From Escherichia coli (GTDB lineage Bacteria; Pseudomonadota; Gammaproteobacteria; Enterobacterales; Enterobacteriaceae): 64,000 nucleotides of DNA. Shown in pieces: positions 1-17,992 of this stretch. The stretch's first letter is position 1. Every line of letters starts with the position of its first letter. Below the pieces are notes generated by a model, which made no database searches, had not been told where the DNA came from, and was given only the letters and a program-made list of their open reading frames with translations. The stretch lies in the NCBI RefSeq assembly GCF_013122565.1, contig NZ_CP053258.1; one strand, written 5' to 3'. The position numbers were made by a program, and so were the translations under genes.

Positions 1-963
1 TGGCAACCTGATTCATCAGGCTTTGTGTAAGCGGAACGATTAATCCGGATTTTTCAGCAAGTGGAATAAATGCCGCGGGTGAAATATATCCACCGTGAGG
101 TTGTTTCCAGCGGGCTAACACCTCAACTCCCCGCAATGTCCCTTCCCGACCATTTACCACAGGTTGGTAAAAAGGGACGATCTCCCCATTATTTATAGCC
201 CGTCGCAGGATCTCTTCAGGCGTTGCGCTTTTATTGAAATACCTATCAAGCAGGAAAGCAGCGGCGCAGGCGATTAACAGAATAAATATCAAAATCCCAA
301 AGCCTTTATCGATAAGTCTGTAGAAGCTAAAGAGTGGTGGCGGGTTGAAGATAATAGTGAAATGATATTTTGTGGAGTGAACCTTCTCGGTATAGGGATA
401 ATGTCCATTAAGCGTCATCACATCACCCGTAGGTCCAATAATGTCATCCGCCACGCGTAATACATACCTTACCCCTTTCAAGGGTACATTAAGCGCCCCG
501 CGAATATGCTGATCACTTATCGTAACCAAAATGCGCGTATCTGCAAATTGGCTCTGATAGAGCAGGATAGGTAATCTATTAACGGTGTCGATTGCCGGAG
601 CCAACAGCAAATTACTGTCCGGGACAACAGGAATACGAGACAGCAGGACCCGATTCCCAGGCAGGGATGTACACCAGACTATTCCCTGTTTGAGAATGAT
701 GATTGTGCGCAGGTGAGGTTTCAGAGCTGCTTCAGTGCCAAGCTGATATTGCTCCTCGAGGTCGCATTCCTTCCCGGCAATGTTAACCGCTGTTTGAGTC
801 GCCTGTGACGCTTCTTCAAGTATATGATTGATATTGTTGGCGGCATATCTCGCTCCCGCCAGGTACTCTGCTTTTGCGGAATACCAGAGCTGGATGTTCA
901 AAATAGCGACACCGGTTATAAACAAGCATATCGCAACGAGGATGGGTATGAATGTATTGCGCA
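1..963 (-). CDS. pdeG: c-di-GMP phosphodiesterase PdeG (YcgG; CSS-domain + EAL), N-terminal part only; 3' end lies beyond the window edge
   Basis: Minus-strand frame from ATG at 961-963 translates MRNTLIPILVAICLFITGVAILNIQLWYSAKAEYLAGARYAANNINH... and stays open to position 1; absent from ORF track because its stop is outside the window. Confidence 0.85.
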
Positions 964-1151
964 TTTGCTTGTCCCGGCCAAAGGGGTTAATACATGAAAA
1001 TGCCATTCATTCGCTCGCTCGCGCTGGCATCTACAGAGAGCATGGTAGAGAGCATAAGAAATATCCACGCCGAAGATAAAATTTTCTCCATCTTGATCTC
1101 ATCCATTAATCATTGAGCATAATGTAGACAGGATAAAGTAAATTAGGCGGG

Positions 1152-1205
1152 ATATCAGGTGTCAAGAATGGAGAGCGAGAACTCTCCATTCTTGACACCT
1201 GATAT
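1152..1205. repeat. Perfect 24-bp inverted repeat (arms 1152-1175 and 1182-1205) with 6-nt loop
   Basis: Left arm atatcaggtgtcaagaatggagag is the exact reverse complement of the right arm; lies between the pdeG start and the ymgC stop. Confidence 0.7.
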
Positions 1206-1299
1206 TGTGGACATATTAAGAAAGCATAACGCCTGAAATGCTCACTTTGCACCAGCATGGTGATACAGCTGATGTTTATTCTATAACCTTACTCAAGTT

Positions 1300-1548
1300 C
1301 TAAGAAATCACGGATTCCCTGTCATTAATAATGATATCCGTTAGTGTAGTCTTATGCATTTCAATGTACTGCAATATTTGCAGATAGAGATCAGAAAGAA
1401 TCACACTGGTTTCATCTTTTAAACGCAAGCGTAAAGCCTGATCAATAATATGACTATCAACATACCCATGCGTCATGAACACCTCCCTCTCGAGATTTTT
1501 AAACAAAGCACATTGAAAAATAAATCTCTCTGGGATTGAATTATTCAT
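1300..1548 (-). CDS. ymgC: Uncharacterized protein YmgC (last gene of the ycgZ-ymgA-ariR-ymgC operon)
   Basis: 82-aa ORF MNNSIPERFIFQCALFKNLEREVF...; position and size match ymgC. Confidence 0.85.
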   Translation of the reverse strand: MNNSIPERFIFQCALFKNLEREVFMTHGYVDSHIIDQALRLRLKDETSVILSDLYLQILQYIEMHKTTLTDIIINDRESVIS

Positions 1549-1660
1549 GTCAGCCTCGTAGAAATATTAACCCAATAAAATTATGCTGTGTATAGTCTAA
1601 AGCGACAGACAAAAATAAGATGAATGAGTTTTCTATAAACTTATACTTAATAATTAAAAG

Positions 1661-1927
1661 TTACATATCATCCGCTGTGTATCGCAACACGATTTCCAGT
1701 GTTTTTCTGATCACATCAGCTTTGAGAATATCACTTGTTGTTTCCAGGGAGTGTATCAGACTTAAGATAATATTTTTATTATTAACATTATCGCCTGAAA
1801 GCATTAAATTAGTCACAGCCTGCCCTAACACAGCTGACTCTTCTTCTAACAAATTACCCGAACTGCGAAAGTAACTTGATAACGCTTTATCAGCTATTGC
1901 ATTATGAATAGTAGTATCTTCAAGCAT
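1661..1927 (-). CDS. ariR: AriR (YmgB), regulator of acid resistance and biofilm
   Basis: 88-aa [91 protein letters not shown]. Confidence 0.9.
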
Positions 1928-1955
1928 AGTAACCTCTCATCTTACTTATGAAATT

Positions 1956-2228
1956 TTAATGTATTCTGTTTATTTTCTTACCATTGAAAATACTTTTATT
2001 GTCAGTTATCGCTGTTCTTCTGTTTGGCCCTCCTGTATCACTGTTGCTAAAATCACGAATTATACTGTCAATTAAATCTCGTCGGAAAGCATTTTCCTCA
2101 GCCGATTTCATTACGAGTAATTGCTTAATAAGAGTCTGCAACGAAAAATTTATCTTCATGCGCAGTATCTGGAGCACCGCCTGGCCAGTAATTTCATATT
2201 TTGTACTTTCATTATCAGATGTCTTCAT
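1956..2228 (-). CDS. ymgA: YmgA, Rcs-connector small protein
   Basis: 90-aa ORF MKTSDNESTKYEITGQAVLQILRMKINFSLQTLIKQLL...; in operon with ycgZ and ariR. Confidence 0.9.
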   Translation of the reverse strand: MKTSDNESTKYEITGQAVLQILRMKINFSLQTLIKQLLVMKSAEENAFRRDLIDSIIRDFSNSDTGGPNRRTAITDNKSIFNGKKINRIH

Positions 2229-2270
2229 AACGACTTCATAGCTAACCTGTTAAATAATCAGGCTGTTGCA

Positions 2271-2507
2271 TTATTCAAAAAGCAACCCAATTAGTGCATT
2301 ATAATGTTTCTGTTCCTCTTCCCCTGTCGCTTGTTCCAGTCGGCATAGAAGTTTGGCACAAAGCGACTTTCGACTCAGATTACGTCCATCTTTCAAAATC
2401 TCAGTCACAATTTCCCCGAGAGTTTCCTGCTGAGTAGGCAAGTTAGCTTTTGCAAAGTAACGAGTGATTGCTCCCGCAGAATCTAAAGTCACTGAATTTT
2501 GATGCAT
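2271..2507 (-). CDS. ycgZ: YcgZ, small regulatory protein
   Basis: 78-aa ORF MHQNSVTLDSAGAITRYFAKANLPTQQETLGEIVTEILKDGRNLSRKSL...; first gene of the operon, divergent from bluF. Confidence 0.9.
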   Translation of the reverse strand: MHQNSVTLDSAGAITRYFAKANLPTQQETLGEIVTEILKDGRNLSRKSLCAKLLCRLEQATGEEEQKHYNALIGLLFE

Positions 2508-2820
2508 GCTACGCCTCTGTTAAAAATGTTAATCAATGTTAAGTGAGGTAACAATAGCAAACTTGTACGAAATATGTGTACAGAATGATAAATTAATTTT
2601 TTGCATTTAGTGCTAATGCATATAAAACAACAAGTTATGATAAAAAGTATTGCATCATTTAAATGACAACCTATACAAGAATTTTCGCCAACTCATCTTT
2701 AACTTTTTCCATTTTTTATCAATGTAAAGAAACAGTTATGTTTTGGTATTAAAAGAAAGACACCGGAAGAGATGTCTGTTACCGTCTTACTCTCGCCTCT
2801 CCCATTACACTGGACAGTTA
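2508..2820. promoter_or_regulatory. Divergent AT-rich promoter region for ycgZ operon and bluF; TGTAC-containing imperfect inverted repeat at about 2563-2583
   Basis: 312-bp AT-rich spacer between divergent starts; motif cTTGTACgaaatatgtGTACAg seen 56-76 nt upstream of the ycgZ start. Confidence 0.4.
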
Positions 2821-4032
2821 ATGCTTACCACCCTTATTTATCGTAGCCATATACGTGACGACGAACCTGTCAAAAAAATCGAAGAAATGGTTTCGATAGC
2901 AAATCGCAGGAACATGCAGTCTGACGTAACAGGGATCTTACTGTTTAATGGTTCTCATTTTTTCCAGCTTCTGGAAGGTCCGGAAGAACAGGTTAAAATG
3001 ATATATCGGGCTATATGCCAGGATCCACGGCACTATAATATTGTTGAGCTGCTGTGCGATTACGCGCCTGCTCGCCGTTTTGGCAAAGCGGGAATGGAAT
3101 TATTTGATTTGCGCCTGCACGAGCGAGATGATGTTTTACAGGCCGTATTCGACAAAGGCACATCAAAATTTCAGCTAACTTATGATGACAGAGCGCTACA
3201 ATTTTTTCGTACTTTTGTCCTTGCAACCGAACAATCAACCTATTTCGAGATCCCTGCCGAAGACTCCTGGCTTTTTATCGCTGACGGATCTGATAAAGCA
3301 CTTGATTCCTGTACCCTTTCACCAAATATAAACGACCACTTTGCTTTTCATCCTATTGTCGATCCCTTATCGCGGCGGATAATCGCTTTTGAAGCCATTG
3401 TGCAAAAAAATGAAGATAGCCCATCAGCTATAGAGGTTGGGCAGCGTAAAGACGGGGAAATCTACAAAGCGGATCTCAAAAGTAAGGCGCTTGCATTCGC
3501 GATGGCACACGCACTTGAGCTCGGTGATAAAATGATTTCAATCAATCTATTACCTATGACCCTGGTTAACGAACCTGACGCAGTCTCTTTTTTACTTGAT
3601 GAAATAAAGGCCAATGCTCTGGTGCCTGAACAAATCATCGTTGAATTTGCTGAAAGTGAAGTCATATCTCGGTTTGATGAGTTTGCAGAAGCGATTAAAT
3701 CGCTAAAGGCTGCTGGTATCAGTGTAGCAATTGATCATTTTGGCGCAGGTTTTGCCGGTTTGTTACTCCTGTCACGCTTCCAGCCTGACAGAATTAAAAT
3801 CAGTCAGGAATTGATTACCAATGTTCATAAAAGCGGGCCACGGCAGGCAATTATTCAGGCGATCATAAAATGCTGTACATCACTTGAAATTCAAGTCAGT
3901 GCTATGGGCGTGGCAACACCAGAAGAGTGGATGTGGCTTGAATCCGCAGGAATTGAGATGTTTCAGGGAGATCTGTTTGCTAAAGCTAAATTGAATGGTA
4001 TCCCTTCCATAGCGTGGCCAGAGAAAAAATAA
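2821..4032 (+). CDS. bluF: Blue-light sensing BLUF-EAL protein BluF (YcgF), anti-repressor of BluR
   Basis: ORF track 2743-4032; conserved start taken at internal ATG 2821 (MLTTLIYRSHIRDDEPVKKIEEMVSIANRR...), giving 403 aa. Confidence 0.9.
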   Translation: MLTTLIYRSHIRDDEPVKKIEEMVSIANRRNMQSDVTGILLFNGSHFFQLLEGPEEQVKMIYRAICQDPRHYNIVELLCDYAPARRFGKAGMELFDLRLHERDDVLQAVFDKGTSKFQLTYDDRALQFFRTFVLATEQSTYFEIPAEDSWLFIADGSDKALDSCTLSPNINDHFAFHPIVDPLSRRIIAFEAIVQKNEDSPSAIEVGQRKDGEIYKADLKSKALAFAMAHALELGDKMISINLLPMTLVNEPDAVSFLLDEIKANALVPEQIIVEFAESEVISRFDEFAEAIKSLKAAGISVAIDHFGAGFAGLLLLSRFQPDRIKISQELITNVHKSGPRQAIIQAIIKCCTSLEIQVSAMGVATPEEWMWLESAGIEMFQGDLFAKAKLNGIPSIAWPEKK

Positions 4033-4152
4033 TTTCCAGCATATTCTTTCACATGATTTCAGTAAATCATCGTGAAAATGAATACGTTATGTTTAAATTT
4101 AATCCACATTAAAAATAATGTTTCATCCAATTTAGCTGAAATCTTATTTATA

Positions 4153-4184
4153 CTTTGTACAATTTTAGCGTATATTGTACAAAG
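4153..4184. promoter_or_regulatory. Inverted repeat cTTTGTACAAt-N10-aTTGTACAAAg upstream of bluR; candidate MerR-family operator
   Basis: Two copies of the self-complementary octamer TTGTACAA 20 bp apart with 11-bp reverse-complementary arms, centred about 69 nt upstream of the bluR GTG start. Confidence 0.4.
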
Positions 4185-4236
4185 TATTATTGGGTCGTGT
4201 ACAGGCGACGGAGATTTGTGACCGCAAGGAGGAATT

Positions 4237-4968
4237 GTGGCTTATTACAGCATTGGTGATGTTGCTGAACGTTGCGGGATTAATCCTGTCACTCTCCGGG
4301 CCTGGCAACGCCGCTACGGTTTGTTAAAACCACAGCGCAGTGAAGGCGGACACCGACTCTTTGATGAAGAAGACATACAACGCATCGAAGAGATCAAGCG
4401 TTGGATAAGTAATGGCGTCCCTGTAGGCAAAGTTAAAGCATTACTGGAAACCACCAGCCAGGATACGGAAGATGACTGGAGCCGCCTGCAAGAAGAGATG
4501 ATGTCAATTCTTCGTATGGCTAATCCTGCCAAACTACGCGCGAGAATTATTTCACTGGGTCGAGAGTACCCAGTAGATCAATTGATTAATCATGTTTACC
4601 TTCCTGTTCGCCAGCGTCTCGTGCTTGATCACAACACCTCCCGCATTATGAGCAGTATGTTTGACGGCGCATTAATTGAATACGCAGCAGCCTCGCTTTT
4701 CGAAATGCGCCGTAAGCCCGGTAAAGAAGCCATTCTGATGGCGTGGAATGTTGAAGAGAGAGCCCGATTGTGGCTGGAAGCATGGCGTTTATCATTATCA
4801 GGATGGCACATTTCTGTTCTTGCTGATCCCATTGAATCGCCGCGCCCGGAACTGTTCCCAACGCAAACGTTGATTGTCTGGACAGGCATGGCACCAACGA
4901 GAAGGCAAAACGAACTTTTACAACACTGGGTTGAGCAAGGTTATAAAGTCATCTTTCATGCCCCCTAA
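4237..4968 (+). CDS. bluR: MerR-family transcriptional repressor BluR (YcgE)
   Basis: 243-aa [59 protein letters not shown]... with MerR-type N-terminal HTH; GTG start preceded by AAGGAGG. Confidence 0.9.
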
Positions 4969-5188
4969 TTTCACCTTTATCCCCGCCCCTTAGACAGAAT
5001 GTTATAATCTGAACCCACAACAGCGTTTGCACCGGAGCTGTTCCATTGCAAAATGCTCACCGCACAATTCAGGCAATCCCCCTTTCACACTTTGTATATA
5101 TCACAGCCAAAGGACAGACCAGATTGAAGTGGTAAAACCGATCGTGCACACTATGCAGTCTCACAACTAACAAGAGGTTATTATCCTG

Positions 5189-5593
5189 ATGGATCAGGTC
5201 GTTGTTTTTCAAAAGATGTTTGAGCAAGTGAGAAAAGACCAAAACTTTTCCTGGTTTTATTCAGAATTAAAACATCACCGTATTGCACATTACATTTATT
5301 ATCTGGCTACGGATAACATCAGAATTATTACTCACGATGACACGGTTTTGTTATTAAGAGGAACCAGGAACCTGTTAAAAGTTAGTACGACCAAGAATCC
5401 TGCCAAAATAAAAGAGGCCGCATTGCTTCATATTTGCGGAAAATCTACATTTCGGGAATACTGTTCAACACTGGCAGGCGCGGGCGTTTTCCGGTGGGTT
5501 ACTGATGTTAATCATAACAAACGCAGTTACTACGCCATTGATAATACGCTTTTATATATTGAAGATGTAGAAAATAATAAACCATTAATCTAG
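5189..5593 (+). CDS. ycgX: Uncharacterized protein YcgX (DUF1398 family)
   Basis: 134-aa ORF MDQVVVFQKMFEQVRKDQNFSWFYSELKHHRIAHYIYYLATDNIRIITHDD... Confidence 0.85.
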   Translation: MDQVVVFQKMFEQVRKDQNFSWFYSELKHHRIAHYIYYLATDNIRIITHDDTVLLLRGTRNLLKVSTTKNPAKIKEAALLHICGKSTFREYCSTLAGAGVFRWVTDVNHNKRSYYAIDNTLLYIEDVENNKPLI

Positions 5594-5804
5594 CTAAAGT
5601 TGGAAGCTTAAGAAATGCTTCATAATTCAGTAAGGCATTAGCATAATGGAACTAAAAGTGCAGAGACTATTCCTATAGATCTTATACTGCCTTTTTATTG
5701 CCATCCATAGATGTTCAGTAGACCAATACTATAAAATTGATATTGAAATGTGCTCCCTTGCTTATTGATACATTATTTTATACGGTTAGTTTTCCTCTAA
5801 AAAC

Positions 5805-5829
5805 AACGGGCGTGCTATACGCCTGTTTC
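5805..5829 (-). terminator. Hairpin aacgggcgtgctatacgcctgtttc, a 23/25-identical copy of the icd terminator hairpin, with no obvious upstream gene on its strand
   Basis: Compare 7097-7121; on the minus strand the hairpin is followed by a U-rich tract. Confidence 0.35.
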
Positions 5830-5972
5830 AAGGCTTAACTCATATGAATTTTTCTTTATTTTTCATCACGTTATAATTTTTAACCAGCAACGAATTATCC
5901 TTCACTATAAAGTTCAATAGTTGAGACCTTATCCTCATGTCATGCGTATATTCATCATAATGATCCTTAGAC

Positions 5973-5998
5973 AAAAAAAGCCAACCATGATGGTTGGC
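5973..5998 (-). terminator. Orphan intrinsic terminator-like hairpin (8-bp stem gccaacca/tggttggc) followed by a U7 run on the minus strand
   Basis: Plus strand reads aaaaaaa-gccaaccatgatggttggc; no annotated minus-strand gene upstream of it. Confidence 0.45.
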
Positions 5999-6220
5999 AA
6001 AGTGGCACAAAGTAGCATAAAGGCTATGCTTTAATTACAGGAGGTTCAGACATTTGAATGTATATCGTTTTATCTAAACAGAACTAAAACGAAGTGAATG
6101 ATTTCATTTTTTCACTAAATCTCATTTTGTTTAATCTCTGTTGAGATTCCTTGTTTTAAATTTTGCTTTATATAAACAATAGCTTTATTTTTTAAATTGA
6201 TTTTTAGGTAATATAGAAAA

Positions 6221-6475
6221 ATGCAAAATCAAGGAATGAATATCCAAAGCAAACTATACGCATATTTAAATAAATATGACACTCGTCTTACAGAAGAAAA
6301 AATTGCGATTGAGAAAGCCATTAGAGAGTTACATTTTAGCAGCGAGCATGTTGATAACAAGAAAATAATACTGAAGTTACTATCATTTTTATCATATACA
6401 GATGATGTTGTCGAAAAAGACATTATCAGAAATGCATTGGAAGTGGTTCTTCTTTTTACTTCCGATGATATTTAA
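6221..6475 (+). CDS. AriR/YmgB-family small protein, paralog of ariR
   Basis: 84-aa ORF; C-terminal half VDNKKIILKLLSFLSYTDDVVEKDIIRNALEVVLLFTSDDI aligns with Ari[42 protein letters not shown]; weak Shine-Dalgarno. Confidence 0.55.
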   Translation: MQNQGMNIQSKLYAYLNKYDTRLTEEKIAIEKAIRELHFSSEHVDNKKIILKLLSFLSYTDDVVEKDIIRNALEVVLLFTSDDI

Positions 6476-6717
6476 TTGAATTCATTAATTTTATTATCAT
6501 AATTATTTTCCGGACACTACATTTTTTACTTATGTTTAATAATAACCACTGCGAATGAGGGACGCACAGGTATATTTTTCTCACACCTGTGATGTAAAAA
6601 CACGATAAAATCCAAATAAAGAATAAAATTTGCGACCCCACCAGATGGATTGCATCACACATTATTATTCAAAATATTTATCAACATCATTAATAGCCGA
6701 AGGATAAGACATAACAA

Positions 6718-7041
6718 ATGAAGTGGATAGTAATTGACACGGTAATTCAACCTACATGCGGTATATCTTTTTCAGCCATATGGGGTGATATGAAAATGAT
6801 CGTCTGGTATCAATCTACTATATTTCTCCCTCCTGGCAGTATATTTAAACCGGTTAAATCTGGTATTATCTTTAAGGATAAAGAATACCCTATTACTATT
6901 TATAACATCGCACCATTCAACAAGGATTTATGGAGTTTACTCAAAAGCAGTCAAGAGTGTCCTCCAGGAGAAAGCAAAATAACAAATAAATGTTTTCATA
7001 ATAGTTGCATTATAAAAATATGCCCATATGGGCTCAAGTAA
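6718..7041 (+). CDS. iraM: Anti-adaptor protein IraM (stabilizes RpoS by inhibiting RssB)
   Basis: 107-aa [36 protein letters not shown]...ICPYGLK; size and sequence match IraM (YcgW). Confidence 0.85.
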
Positions 7042-7092
7042 AGGGTTTCATATAAATATGCTCGATATGCTATTAATAATACCTACATAAAT

Positions 7093-7121
7093 AAAAAAAC
7101 GGGCGTGTTATACGCCCGTTT
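7093..7121 (-). terminator. icd rho-independent terminator (9-bp perfect stem aaacgggcg/cgcccgttt followed by U-run on the minus strand)
   Basis: Located 23 nt downstream of the icd stop codon at 7144-7146. Confidence 0.7.
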
Positions 7122-7143
7122 CAATATTTAAAACATGGAGAGA

Positions 7144-8394
7144 TTACATGTTTTCGATGATCGCGTCACCAAACTCTGAACATTTGAGCAGCTTAGCGCC
7201 TTCCATCAGACGTTCGAAGTCATAAGTTACGGTCTTCGCGTTGATTGCGCCTTCCATACCTTTAACAATCAGGTCTGCGGCTTCAGTCCAGCCCATATGG
7301 CGTAACATCATCTCTGCGGAGAGAATAATAGAGCCTGGGTTAACTTTGTCCTGACCGGCATATTTCGGCGCAGTACCGTGGGTGGCTTCAAACAGGGCGC
7401 ATTCGTCACCGATGTTTGCGCCAGGGGCGATACCAATACCACCAACCTGCGCTGCCAGGGCGTCAGAAATGTAGTCACCGTTCAGGTTCATACAGGCGAT
7501 AACGTCGTATTCAGCCGGACGTAGCAGGATCTGTTGCAGGAACGCATCAGCGATCACGTCTTTAATGACGATCTCTTTGCCGGTGTTCGGGTTTTTAACT
7601 TTCAGCCACGGGCCGCCGTCGATCAGTTCACCGCCAAACTCTTCACGCGCCAGCTGGTAGCCCCAGTCTTTAAACGCGCCTTCGGTGAACTTCATGATGT
7701 TACCTTTGTGCACCAGGGTCACAGAGTCACGATCGTTAGCAATTGCGTATTCGATCGCTGCACGAACCAGACGTTTGGTGCCTTCTTCCGAACACGGCTT
7801 AATACCGATACCGCAATGTTCCGGGAAACGAATTTTCTTCACGCCCATCTCTTCACGCAGGAATTTAATCACTTTCTCGGCGTCGGCAGAGTCAGCTTTC
7901 CATTCGATACCCGCATAAATGTCTTCCGAGTTTTCACGGAAGATAACCATATCGGTCAGTTCAGGGTGTTTAACCGGGCTTGGAGTGCCCTGATAGTAAC
8001 GTACCGGACGCAGGCAGATGTAGAGATCCAGTTCCTGACGCAGGGCAACGTTCAGAGAGCGAATACCGCCACCTACTGGAGTGGTCAGCGGGCCTTTAAT
8101 GGCAACGCGATATTCACGAATCAGATCAAGGGTTTCAGCAGGCAGCCAGACATCCTGACCATAAACCTGTGTGGATTTTTCACCGGTGTAAATTTCCATC
8201 CAGGAGATTTTACGCTCGCCTTTATAGGCTTTCTCGACTGCAGCGTCGACCACTTTCAGCATGGCTGGGGTTACATCTACACCGATTCCATCACCTTCAA
8301 TGTAAGGGATAATCGGATTTTCAGGAACGTTGAGTTTGCCGTTTTGCAGGGTGATCTTCTTGCCTTGTGCCGGAACAACTACTTTACTTTCCAT
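7144..8394 (-). CDS. icd: Isocitrate dehydrogenase (NADP), intact
   Basis: 416-aa [49 protein letters not shown]...[13 protein letters not shown]; full length with the native C-terminus. Confidence 0.97.
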
Positions 8395-8565
8395 TCACCT
8401 CTCCTTCGAGCGCTACTGGTTTGCTCGTCTGCCACCACGTTGCATATGCGTTTGCGTCCTGCGATACGGATGCTTTAGAGCAATTTTTTGTTAATGATTT
8501 GTAATTGGCTTGTCAATACTACCCTATTGTTTGCCGTCATGAAAGATGCGCGTTATTAGGCTATA

Positions 8566-8712
8566 ATGCGGCAATTCATAATCTCTGAAAATACCATGCA
8601 AAAAACTTCTTTTAGACCAAAGACAGTATTTTCCCGACCTTCAAATAAAGTATTAAATATCAATTATTTACACCAGACTTTAAGCAATAAAAAAACCACC
8701 AGAGATAACTAA
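8566..8712 (+). pseudogene. Detached canonical rluE start: first 17 codons of RluE (MRQFIISENTMQKTSFR) fused to unrelated sequence, ending after 48 codons
   Basis: Translation of 8566-8712 gives MRQFIISENTMQKTSFRPKTVFSRPSNKVLNINYLHQTLSNKKTTRDN; the first 17 residues match the RluE N-terminus as I recall it for K-12; a TATAAT hexamer overlaps the ATG. Confidence 0.5.
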
Positions 8713-8854
8713 CAGGGTGCTATTTGGTCAAAATTTGACATTACTCGATTCAGCGACTAACTCACTTTGAGCACTATTGGGAAAATTATCAAAAGTCATG
8801 GTTGAAGCGACAAGCAACGAGTAAATTATGGCATCCACCCTTTTTGAGGTTCAC

Positions 8855-8947
8855 ATGAAACGCTTTGCACTGATAGCTGTGACACTCATTGCCTTTACTG
8901 GTTCTAGTTCTGCATCTGCTGCAACCGAAGAAATCAACTTCAAGTAA
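8855..8947 (+). CDS. Mini-ORF (30 aa) with a signal-peptide-like sequence: MKRFALIAVTLIAFTGSSSASAATEEINFK
   Basis: GAGG Shine-Dalgarno 5 nt upstream of ATG; hydrophobic core plus ASA-A cleavage-like motif; in the same frame as the next ORF but separated by TAA and TGA stops. Confidence 0.35.
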   Translation: MKRFALIAVTLIAFTGSSSASAATEEINFK

Positions 8948-8980
8948 CAGAAACACTATATAACAATGGAGTGTTGAAAA

Positions 8981-9430
8981 ATGGATACTACCGAAGAACG
9001 CAATGGAACATATTTCTACAGAGGACACCCGAACCTGTCCAAAATAGAACTACTCAACGTCATATTCCTTGAAGAATTCTGTAAGGAATTGGGGATTGAT
9101 TCGGTATCAGGTGCAGCAATCTTATCTGGTCAACCTTGGCTGGGTACAAGAGCGAAGCCGGAAGGGGCAACCCTGGGAACAAGTGTTGTCTCAAAGTATG
9201 CGCGTATACTGATGAGAGATGCACGCATGCCTTTTGGTATTTCTGTTCATACAACAGTGGGTGTAAGGATGCAGAAATCTAATAAGCTTGCTGCAATTAT
9301 CGCTCGTTGGGTCCCGTGGATTGGTTGGGCTTCACTGTCGATGAGTCTTTACAGGATTTCGACTCGTACCCAGGAAAAATACAATCTGATTGCCAAACCT
9401 CAAGACCGTATTAAGTGGACTTCCTTCTAA
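8981..9430 (+). CDS. Hypothetical protein (149 aa), unknown function, with a hydrophobic C-proximal segment; first gene of a two-gene overlapping module
   Basis: ORF MDTTEERNGTYFYRGHPNLSKIELLNVIFLEEFCKELG...LAAIIARWVPWIGWASLSMSLY...; its stop overlaps the start of the next ORF (TAATG); no family recognised. Confidence 0.6.
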   Translation: MDTTEERNGTYFYRGHPNLSKIELLNVIFLEEFCKELGIDSVSGAAILSGQPWLGTRAKPEGATLGTSVVSKYARILMRDARMPFGISVHTTVGVRMQKSNKLAAIIARWVPWIGWASLSMSLYRISTRTQEKYNLIAKPQDRIKWTSF

Positions 9431-17925: not shown

Positions 17926-17992
17926 GCCGGATGCGGCGCTGATTGCGCCTTATCGTGCCTACATGCACTGAACGCCTGTAGGCACGATAAGT
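17926..17992. repeat. REP (repetitive extragenic palindromic) elements between convergent roxA and pepT
   Basis: gccggatgcggcg...ccttatcgtgcctac and inverted copy gcctgtaggcacgataag. Confidence 0.6.

Follow-up and report, generated by a model that had tools for sequence, protein, structure and literature searches.

In phage lambda, an RNase III hairpin downstream of int, sib, controls decay of the upstream mRNA. The 3′ stem-loops that Dar and Sorek (2018, NAR) described in Rho-dependent transcripts give protection from PNPase and RNase II, with rut sites located just downstream of the stem-loops. Stem-loops are also found after the last operon gene in intrinsic terminators, and intergenic palindromes of the REP/BIME type are able to stabilize upstream mRNA. 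At quasi-palindrome hotspots (the Ripley model; the thyA and lacZ reporters of the Lovett laboratory; Lavi 2018), imperfect repeats are accompanied by variants that restore complementarity.

In this study, we report an analysis of a long inverted repeat located between ymgC and pdeG (ycgG) in a 64,000-nucleotide stretch of Escherichia coli DNA, hereafter the window. Similar to the stem-loops of Dar and Sorek, the hairpin encoded by this repeat is very stable, resides in a 3′-UTR, lacks a U-rich tract and is directly followed by a short C-rich, G-poor stretch; it differs from them in that its 3′-end role is putative, that its stem of 24-25 bp may invite RNase III, and that its C-over-G bias is short. 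It shares with intrinsic terminators the position of a stem-loop after the last operon gene; however, neither strand has a U-tract, the stem is two to three times the usual length and not GC-rich, and ymgC mRNA was reported to be non-polyadenylated. It is an intergenic palindrome like REP/BIME elements, but it is single-copy, unrelated to them in sequence and confined to one locus. The long duplex 3′ of a coding region, potentially cleavable by RNase III, is reminiscent of lambda sib, although its formation does not depend on antitermination and RNase III cleavage is putative. Compared to quasi-palindrome hotspots, it has in common an imperfect repeat and variants that restore complementarity, with both corrections present; here, however, the evidence is population polymorphism rather than mutation rates, the uncorrected allele is still in the majority and one class-defining base is not templated. 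The hairpin is most likely a 3′-UTR structure at the RNA level, of a functional kind already known; it may overlap a promoter, and its arms show clear signs of evolution that keeps them matched.

The ycgZ-ymgABC operon and PdeG both act on Rcs and c-di-GMP control of E. coli biofilm formation, and no published description exists of whether the operon and pdeG are separated or coupled. The hairpin itself is undescribed in the searchable literature that mentions ymgC.

The hairpin and its setting

A perfect 24-bp inverted repeat with a 6-nt loop had been reported here in the first-pass annotation, and our analysis confirmed it: the two arms are 100% complementary, and the palindrome reads ATATCAGGTGTCAAGAATGGAGAG-CGAGAA-CTCTCCATTCTTGACACCTGATAT on the plus strand of the window (Table 1). 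Its reported location, 3′ to the operon ycgZ-ymgA-ariR-ymgC and 5′ of the pdeG start, was borne out by homologous annotated E. coli loci, and megablast against 5,426 complete E. coli genomes identified the flanks as pdeG and ymgC. Upstream of ymgC, the genes ariR, ymgA and ycgZ were found, with bluF and bluR beyond them. The four genes ycgZ-ymgA-ariR-ymgC are reported to be transcribed as one polycistronic mRNA (Tschowri 2012). On the sense (minus) strand, the hairpin starts 95 nt past the ymgC stop codon and ends 187 nt ahead of the pdeG ATG. Its counterpart in K-12 MG1655 occupies approximately 1,217,091-1,217,144.

Table 1. Features of the ymgC-pdeG region (coordinates of the window)
Feature	Position	Strand	Remarks
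pdeG (ycgG) CDS, 5′ part	1..964	-	start codon 964-962
Candidate -10	1135..1142	-	TTTACT at 17 nt or TACTTT at 19 nt; weak match, varies among strains
pdeG-proximal arm (3′ arm of the sense hairpin)	1152..1175	-	nearly invariant in sampled E. coli
Consensus -35 facing pdeG	1160..1165	-	TTGACA (TTGACG in K-12); within the conserved arm
Spacer/loop	1176..1181	-	CGAGAA on plus strand, UUCUCG in sense RNA; predicted UCUC tetraloop closed by U·G
ymgC-proximal arm (5′ arm of the sense hairpin)	1182..1205	-	variable arm across E. coli; contains the 4-nt insertion and most substitutions of the ~1,650 genomes with 28-nt arms
Rest of ymgC 3′-UTR, upstream of the hairpin	1206..1299	-	two small predicted stem-loops
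ymgC	1300..1548	-	annotation transferred from K-12 and other E. coli strains

An inverted repeat of 24 nt is far above chance. By a hand calculation, the expected number of such repeats is approximately 64,000 x 11 x 4^-24 (roughly 2.5e-9), and matches to the arm sequence, which occurs at only two sites in the 64-kb window, were obtained in 0 of 100 shuffles. It is also the sole long perfect inverted repeat of the 64 kb, the runner-up having 14-nt arms. For the sense RNA, a stem of 25 pairs with a 4-nt loop was predicted (compared to 24 pairs and 6 nt in the DNA repeat). The folding energy of the 54-mer was -42.7 kcal/mol as sense RNA (z = -13.6) and -41.4 kcal/mol as antisense RNA (z = -12.3), values that no shuffle equaled; as single-stranded DNA it was -26.8 kcal/mol (z = -10.2). 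The spacer between the hairpin and pdeG showed no significant RNA structure (z = +1.0).

Several minor features were observed in the surrounding spacers. Within the ymgC 3′-UTR, a 34-nt plus-strand block at 1218-1251 (AAGAAAGCATAACGCCTGAAATGCTCACTTTGCA), for which a small stem-loop is predicted, was identical in the six complete-genome alleles aligned, and the sequence next to it varies. Contacts between the RNAs RprA and ymgC are on record in published work. On the other side of the hairpin, upstream of pdeG, a 9-nt direct repeat with a period of 12 (AGAGAGCAT-GGT-AGAGAGCAT, approximately 1037-1057) was invariant in six divergent strains and could be a regulator site. A 39-residue ORF with a hydrophobic core was also detected between the hairpin and pdeG (987-1106, minus strand); at approximately 1008-1022 within it, the window has (TCGC)3 and every other sampled E. 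coli has (TCGC)2, a 4-nt difference that shifts the frame, so this ORF is probably not coding. Two ORFs across the palindrome (50 residues on the minus strand and 25 on the plus strand) were rejected, as a 4-nt indel breaks their frame in a third of genomes.

The ymgC 3′-UTR and the end of the operon transcript

A stable RNA stem-loop at the operon 3′ end was among the roles proposed in the first-pass annotation, and it gives the best fit to the data: the hairpin is located in the ymgC 3′-UTR, it has no U-tract, and pairing is favored on the sense strand. The structural part of that proposal stood. The functional part, comprising the position of the hairpin at the RNA 3′ end, a block to exonucleases and an involvement of Rho, is in all three respects something that we infer, because the available 3′-end tables do not cover this poorly expressed operon.

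We tentatively favor the explanation that the hairpin is an RNA stem-loop in the ymgC 3′-UTR that defines or protects the 3′ end of the operon and separates it from pdeG. The stem-loop would form on the sense transcript, in the 3′-UTR of the last gene of a blue-light- and cold-induced operon. Transcription would pass the hairpin and stop in the untranslated spacer, and 3′-to-5′ exonucleases would trim the RNA as far as the stem base. In this way, the hairpin would fix and stabilize the operon 3′ end and set the operon apart from pdeG, and the matching of its arms could be kept either by quasi-palindrome template switching or by compensatory selection on the RNA stem. If true, a 3′ end defined by the hairpin would account for how stable the operon mRNA is and for whether pdeG is shielded from the operon.

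We searched both strands of window positions 800-1700 for terminator-like sites with a U-rich tract (at least 5 U in 8 nt) and detected none. The sequence past the stem is CCCGCCUAAUUU on the sense strand and UGUGGACAUAUU on the antisense strand, with no U-run on either. The missing U-tract implies that the hairpin is not an intrinsic terminator. In a study that tied polyadenylation to Rho-independent terminators, ymgC mRNA served as the non-polyadenylated negative control, which provides indirect evidence consistent with the lack of an intrinsic terminator. With a stable stem-loop in a sense 3′-UTR and no U-tract, the hairpin has the structure that characterizes the class of Dar and Sorek (2018). 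The first 30 nt after the stem contain 10 C and 2 G; over 78 nt the numbers are 14 C and 12 G, and because the C-rich stretch is so short, a Rho loading (rut) site is not evident. The Term-seq tables of Adams (2021) and the TERMITe tables contain no entry at ymgC, probably since the operon is silent at 37 °C.

Natural alleles and pairing of the arms

Variation of the hairpin was assessed in 75 metagenomic loci, found by an invariant flank pattern, together with loci from complete genomes. This set yielded 19 versions of the hairpin region, from which 14 distinct hairpin sequences were used for folding and pair analyses; allele counts given below are exact-allele records in complete E. coli genomes. 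The majority allele is of the K-12 type (2,890 records), in which a C in the pdeG-proximal arm is opposite an A. These bases correspond to window positions 1160, where the window has T, and 1197 (A), and in the sense transcript the single mismatch of this common allele pairs as a G·U wobble. The perfect T-A allele of the window was represented by 152 records. A second perfect allele, in which A at 1197 is replaced by G to give a C-G pair, accounted for 71 records, and other variants with 1-2 substitutions relative to the K-12 type for about 52. In addition, a degenerate class (about 1,650 records, including B2 strains, O157:H7 and others) has a 4-nt insertion and several substitutions in the ymgC-proximal arm, and an intermediate type (L045, 3 records) is B2-like in its left arm and loop and K-12-like in its right arm. 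Depending on the allele class, the loop is CGAGAA, CGAGCG, CGAGTG or CGAAAA.

The perfection of the repeat is a derived feature. The two perfect alleles reside on different flanking haplotypes, and all classes other than the T-A allele invariably have the C in the pdeG-proximal arm; each perfect allele therefore arose from the mismatched one through its own single transition. The 24/24 match of the window is thus a derived minority allele, generated by one C-to-T change in the pdeG-proximal arm that converted G·U to A-U. On the sense RNA, pair 9 is U-A in 152 records, U·G in 2,890 and C-G in 71, a classical compensatory series. All perfect inverted repeats of MG1655 in Lavi (2018) have arms shorter than 20 bp, which fits our observation because the K-12 copy of the hairpin is interrupted by the mismatch. 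In a neighbor-joining tree of ymgC-linked sequence, neither the 24-nt nor the 28-nt class was monophyletic. Rooting of the allele classes with an outgroup was unsuccessful: YmgC is confined to E. coli, two divergent loci (L082 and L083) are without the hairpin, and another (L085) comes from a noisy assembly.

In all 14 natural variants, the sense RNA folded better than the antisense RNA, with differences of 0.6 to 13.3 kcal/mol; the baseline difference, that of the perfect alleles, is 1.3 kcal/mol. The sense and antisense energies were -42.3 and -37.5 kcal/mol for the K-12 variant, -39.6 and -29.0 kcal/mol for the L045 variant, and -28.6 and -16.8 kcal/mol for the B2b variant. The mismatch of the common allele is U·G on the sense RNA and C·A on the antisense RNA, and the A-for-G differences of the B2 type at the top of the stem give G·U on the sense strand. 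In the bulged class with 28-nt arms, two stems survive on the sense strand, the lower one with 6-8 bp and the upper one with approximately 14 bp. We also counted non-Watson-Crick positions, using a fixed pairing register (a MAFFT alignment of the variants put the 4-nt gap wrongly). Pooled over variants, these positions comprised 27 G·U pairs and 13 mismatches on the sense strand versus 3 G·U pairs and 37 mismatches on the antisense strand, a pooling that is inflated by shared ancestry. When the sites are taken as independent, the asymmetry in G·U pairs is 6 versus 2 (one-sided binomial p of approximately 0.15) and is suggestive only.

These allele data bear directly on the possibility that the hairpin has no function, being a quasi-palindrome in otherwise neutral spacer DNA whose arms are kept matched by template switching during replication. 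Such a process alone could keep the arms matched, and the results of Lavi (2018) support the view that imperfect inverted repeats are preferentially corrected in E. coli. Both single-base corrections that it predicts, C to T in the left arm and A to G in the right arm, segregate on different haplotypes. They are the only two single changes that perfect the stem, and one or the other is present in 223 of the 275 records that differ from the majority allele by 1-2 substitutions. Moreover, the differences between the 24-nt and 28-nt classes are clustered within the hairpin. The two independent perfecting alleles are of the kind that marks template-switch hotspots, i.e., variants that raise arm complementarity and are templated by the opposite arm, and template switching would account well for both. 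However, retention of the mismatch in the majority records implies that correction is not fast, and approximately 1,650 genomes keep the degenerate form uncorrected. At pair 9, the right-arm A of the 24-nt class is not the templated base (G), yet it gives G·U on the sense strand, and a strand asymmetry of wobbles is not predicted by a process that acts on DNA only. We consider a purely neutral origin unlikely; if it were correct, the locus would be ordinary. The series U-A, U·G and C-G, together with the bulged forms, in approximately 5,000 genomes provides material for distinguishing selection at the RNA level from quasi-palindrome correction.

RNase III, a possible pdeG promoter and the distribution of the element

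The same stem that would protect a 3′ end may instead be a substrate for RNase III. In this scenario of processing or retroregulation, the 24-25 bp duplex in read-through RNA would be cut, exposing ycgZ-ymgABC mRNA to 3′ decay or splitting off pdeG mRNA. The 24-25 uninterrupted pairs exceed the approximately 22 bp accommodated by RNase III, and in vivo cleavage sites of this enzyme are enriched in intergenic regions within transcripts. Since the duplex is long enough, cleavage would remove protection, which counts against the 3′-end stem-loop that we favor. Table S1 of Gordon (2017) includes, at 1,217,246 in the ymgC-ycgG spacer, a signal that depends on rnc, with 41 reads in the rnc mutant versus 0 and 1 in wild type; however, this signal is approximately 100 nt downstream of the hairpin, and hundreds of entries in the table have counts that are similarly low. 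In addition, the locus is unmentioned in the main text of the higher-resolution study of Altuvia (2018). Overall, processing by RNase III appears rather improbable.

A further possibility is that the repeat acts at the DNA level as part of a pdeG promoter, in which one arm would supply the -35 element and the palindrome would modulate initiation through a supercoil-driven cruciform or protein binding. A perfect TTGACA is present in the pdeG-proximal arm and oriented towards pdeG. Genomic SELEX (Shimada 2014) placed binding of the RpoD holoenzyme in the ymgC>ycgG spacer, where the predicted promoter TTGACG-19-TATTTT uses this hexamer, and also flagged H-NS there; a sigma-S ChIP-seq peak (1215900-1216399, U00096.2) spans ymgC and the hairpin. 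These peaks are hundreds of bp wide, however, and a predicted promoter in this case is the best nearby consensus match. The genomic SELEX paper on SrsR deals with bluR rather than with the ymgC-pdeG spacer. The best -10 candidate, TTTACT at 17 nt, falls within the 16-18 bp spacing expected of a sigma-70 promoter and matches the consensus in 4 of 6 positions, the -10 region differs between strains, and a consensus scan called no promoter on the minus strand. We regard a promoter role as fairly unlikely to be what the palindrome is for.

The two arms are very unequally conserved. The pdeG-proximal arm and the CCCG that follows it are almost invariant, whereas the ymgC-proximal arm is variable, and TTGACG is retained even in the 28-nt-arm alleles, where it is unpaired. 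Such a pattern supports a promoter element and, counting against the stem-loop that we favor, points to an additional constraint at the DNA or sequence level. It speaks against a symmetric site for a dimer, which would need equally conserved arms. The first-pass annotation had offered a binding site for a dimeric protein controlling pdeG as the other role of the repeat; this proposal was not upheld, as the arms differ so much in conservation, their 24 bp far exceed operator half-sites and no cognate factor was identified. A link between the hairpin and pdeG control is nevertheless possible, in that the conserved arm holds TTGAC(A/G), the -35 element of the ycgG promoter predicted by Shimada (2014).

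Two other candidates were rejected. An antisense promoter based on the TTGACA of the other arm was discarded, as this hexamer is destroyed in 28-nt-arm alleles. For an RcsAB box, only a single half-site resembling the consensus, AAGAAT, was present.

The RNA and DNA roles might also be combined in a dual-use switch that couples ycgZ-ymgABC to pdeG, which encodes a c-di-GMP phosphodiesterase. The RNA would serve as a gate for RNase III and exonucleases in read-through transcripts, the DNA arm would serve as the pdeG -35 element, and the hairpin or cruciform and promoter use would be mutually exclusive. Alleles of differing stem strength (perfect, G·U and 28-nt bulged) would then tune the coupling, and the locus would offer a rare example from nature of one quasi-palindrome whose two template-switch corrections segregate in a single species. 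We find such a switch quite doubtful.

The hairpin is an E. coli-specific, single-locus element. It occurs at a single locus per genome in 4,951 of the 5,426 complete E. coli genomes; two places were counted per genome because the palindrome matches itself on both strands. Membership in a known dispersed repeat family had been considered as an explanation that would leave the element without a local function, and a check for copies was carried out in the window, E. coli genomes, phages and plasmids. It revealed one locus per genome and thus no family of that kind, which also disagrees with the many copies expected of REP, BIME, ERIC, BoxC or MITE elements. No copy was found in 50,697 phage records. 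Fourteen plasmid matches were obtained, all in E. coli records labeled as plasmid, predicted to be non-mobilizable and up to 4.9 Mb in size, which implies that they are pieces of chromosome and that no true plasmid copies exist. At a permissive threshold, the Rfam matches were limited to miRNA models of eukaryotes, which scored far under the gathering thresholds and are generic long-hairpin matches. The MG1655 annotation has no repeat feature at the hairpin, and no direct repeats resembling a target-site duplication, as would be expected of a MITE or IS remnant, are visible next to the arms. YmgC homologs were detected in E. coli only. In scans of species representatives, the exact DNA pattern of the left arm had 0 matches among 100,044 and the YmgC protein had 71 pattern matches with no confirmed relative; both scans missed E. 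coli itself and so carry little weight.

An origin from a mobile or dispersed repeat, as its remnant or one of its members (REP/BIME, ERIC, MITE or joined IS ends), which would fit the palindromic and intergenic nature of the element, an IS3 end inside one arm in strain A29 and a divergent Escherichia lineage with neither the hairpin nor pdeG downstream of ymgC, is largely refuted by its single copy and by the lack of phage or true plasmid copies, of an Rfam family or MG1655 repeat annotation and of flanking direct repeats, and we consider it extremely improbable.

Several rearranged loci were observed. In E. coli A29 (locus 2508-3800), the IS3 end lies 3 nt into the ymgC-proximal arm, and the segment from ymgC through the 5′ part of bluF is deleted. 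In the divergent Escherichia (L082 and L083, from GCA_017278115.1 and an SRA assembly), YmgC is 82% identical and the neighboring DNA approximately 88% identical to E. coli; homology ends approximately 30 nt before the hairpin, and cybB/gapC are found downstream of ymgC in place of the hairpin and pdeG. In strains A4 and FCI29, the 5′ part of pdeG is deleted, and ymgA of A4 has an internal stop. The hairpin alleles of these two strains are the weakest on the sense strand or descend from the weakest form, a hint that the locus as a whole is in decay in this lineage.

The closest complete E. coli genome was 97.6% identical to the window over 1-9000 and 98.9% identical over 30-50 kb, suggesting that the lineage of the window is not represented among the complete E. 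coli genomes compared. The presence of icd within 9 kb of pdeG implies that this genome has no e14 prophage at icd. Other inverted repeats were also detected in the window. A perfect 14-nt repeat, ATACTTTGTACAAT-N10-ATTGTACAAAGTAT, is located at 4150-4187, approximately 50 nt upstream of the bluR start (4237). Its core, TTGTACAA, occurs at only two sites in the window, and it resembles the TGTACA-type operators of MerR-family regulators (MlrA, BluR), which by analogy suggests a possible autoregulation of bluR. A looser pair, TTGTAC...GTGTACA, is present in the promoter region of ycgZ (2561-2586). In addition, an 18-nt inverted repeat (94%; CTTATCGTGCCTACATGC / GCCTGTAGGCACGATAAG) at 17949-17991 has the appearance of a REP-type element.
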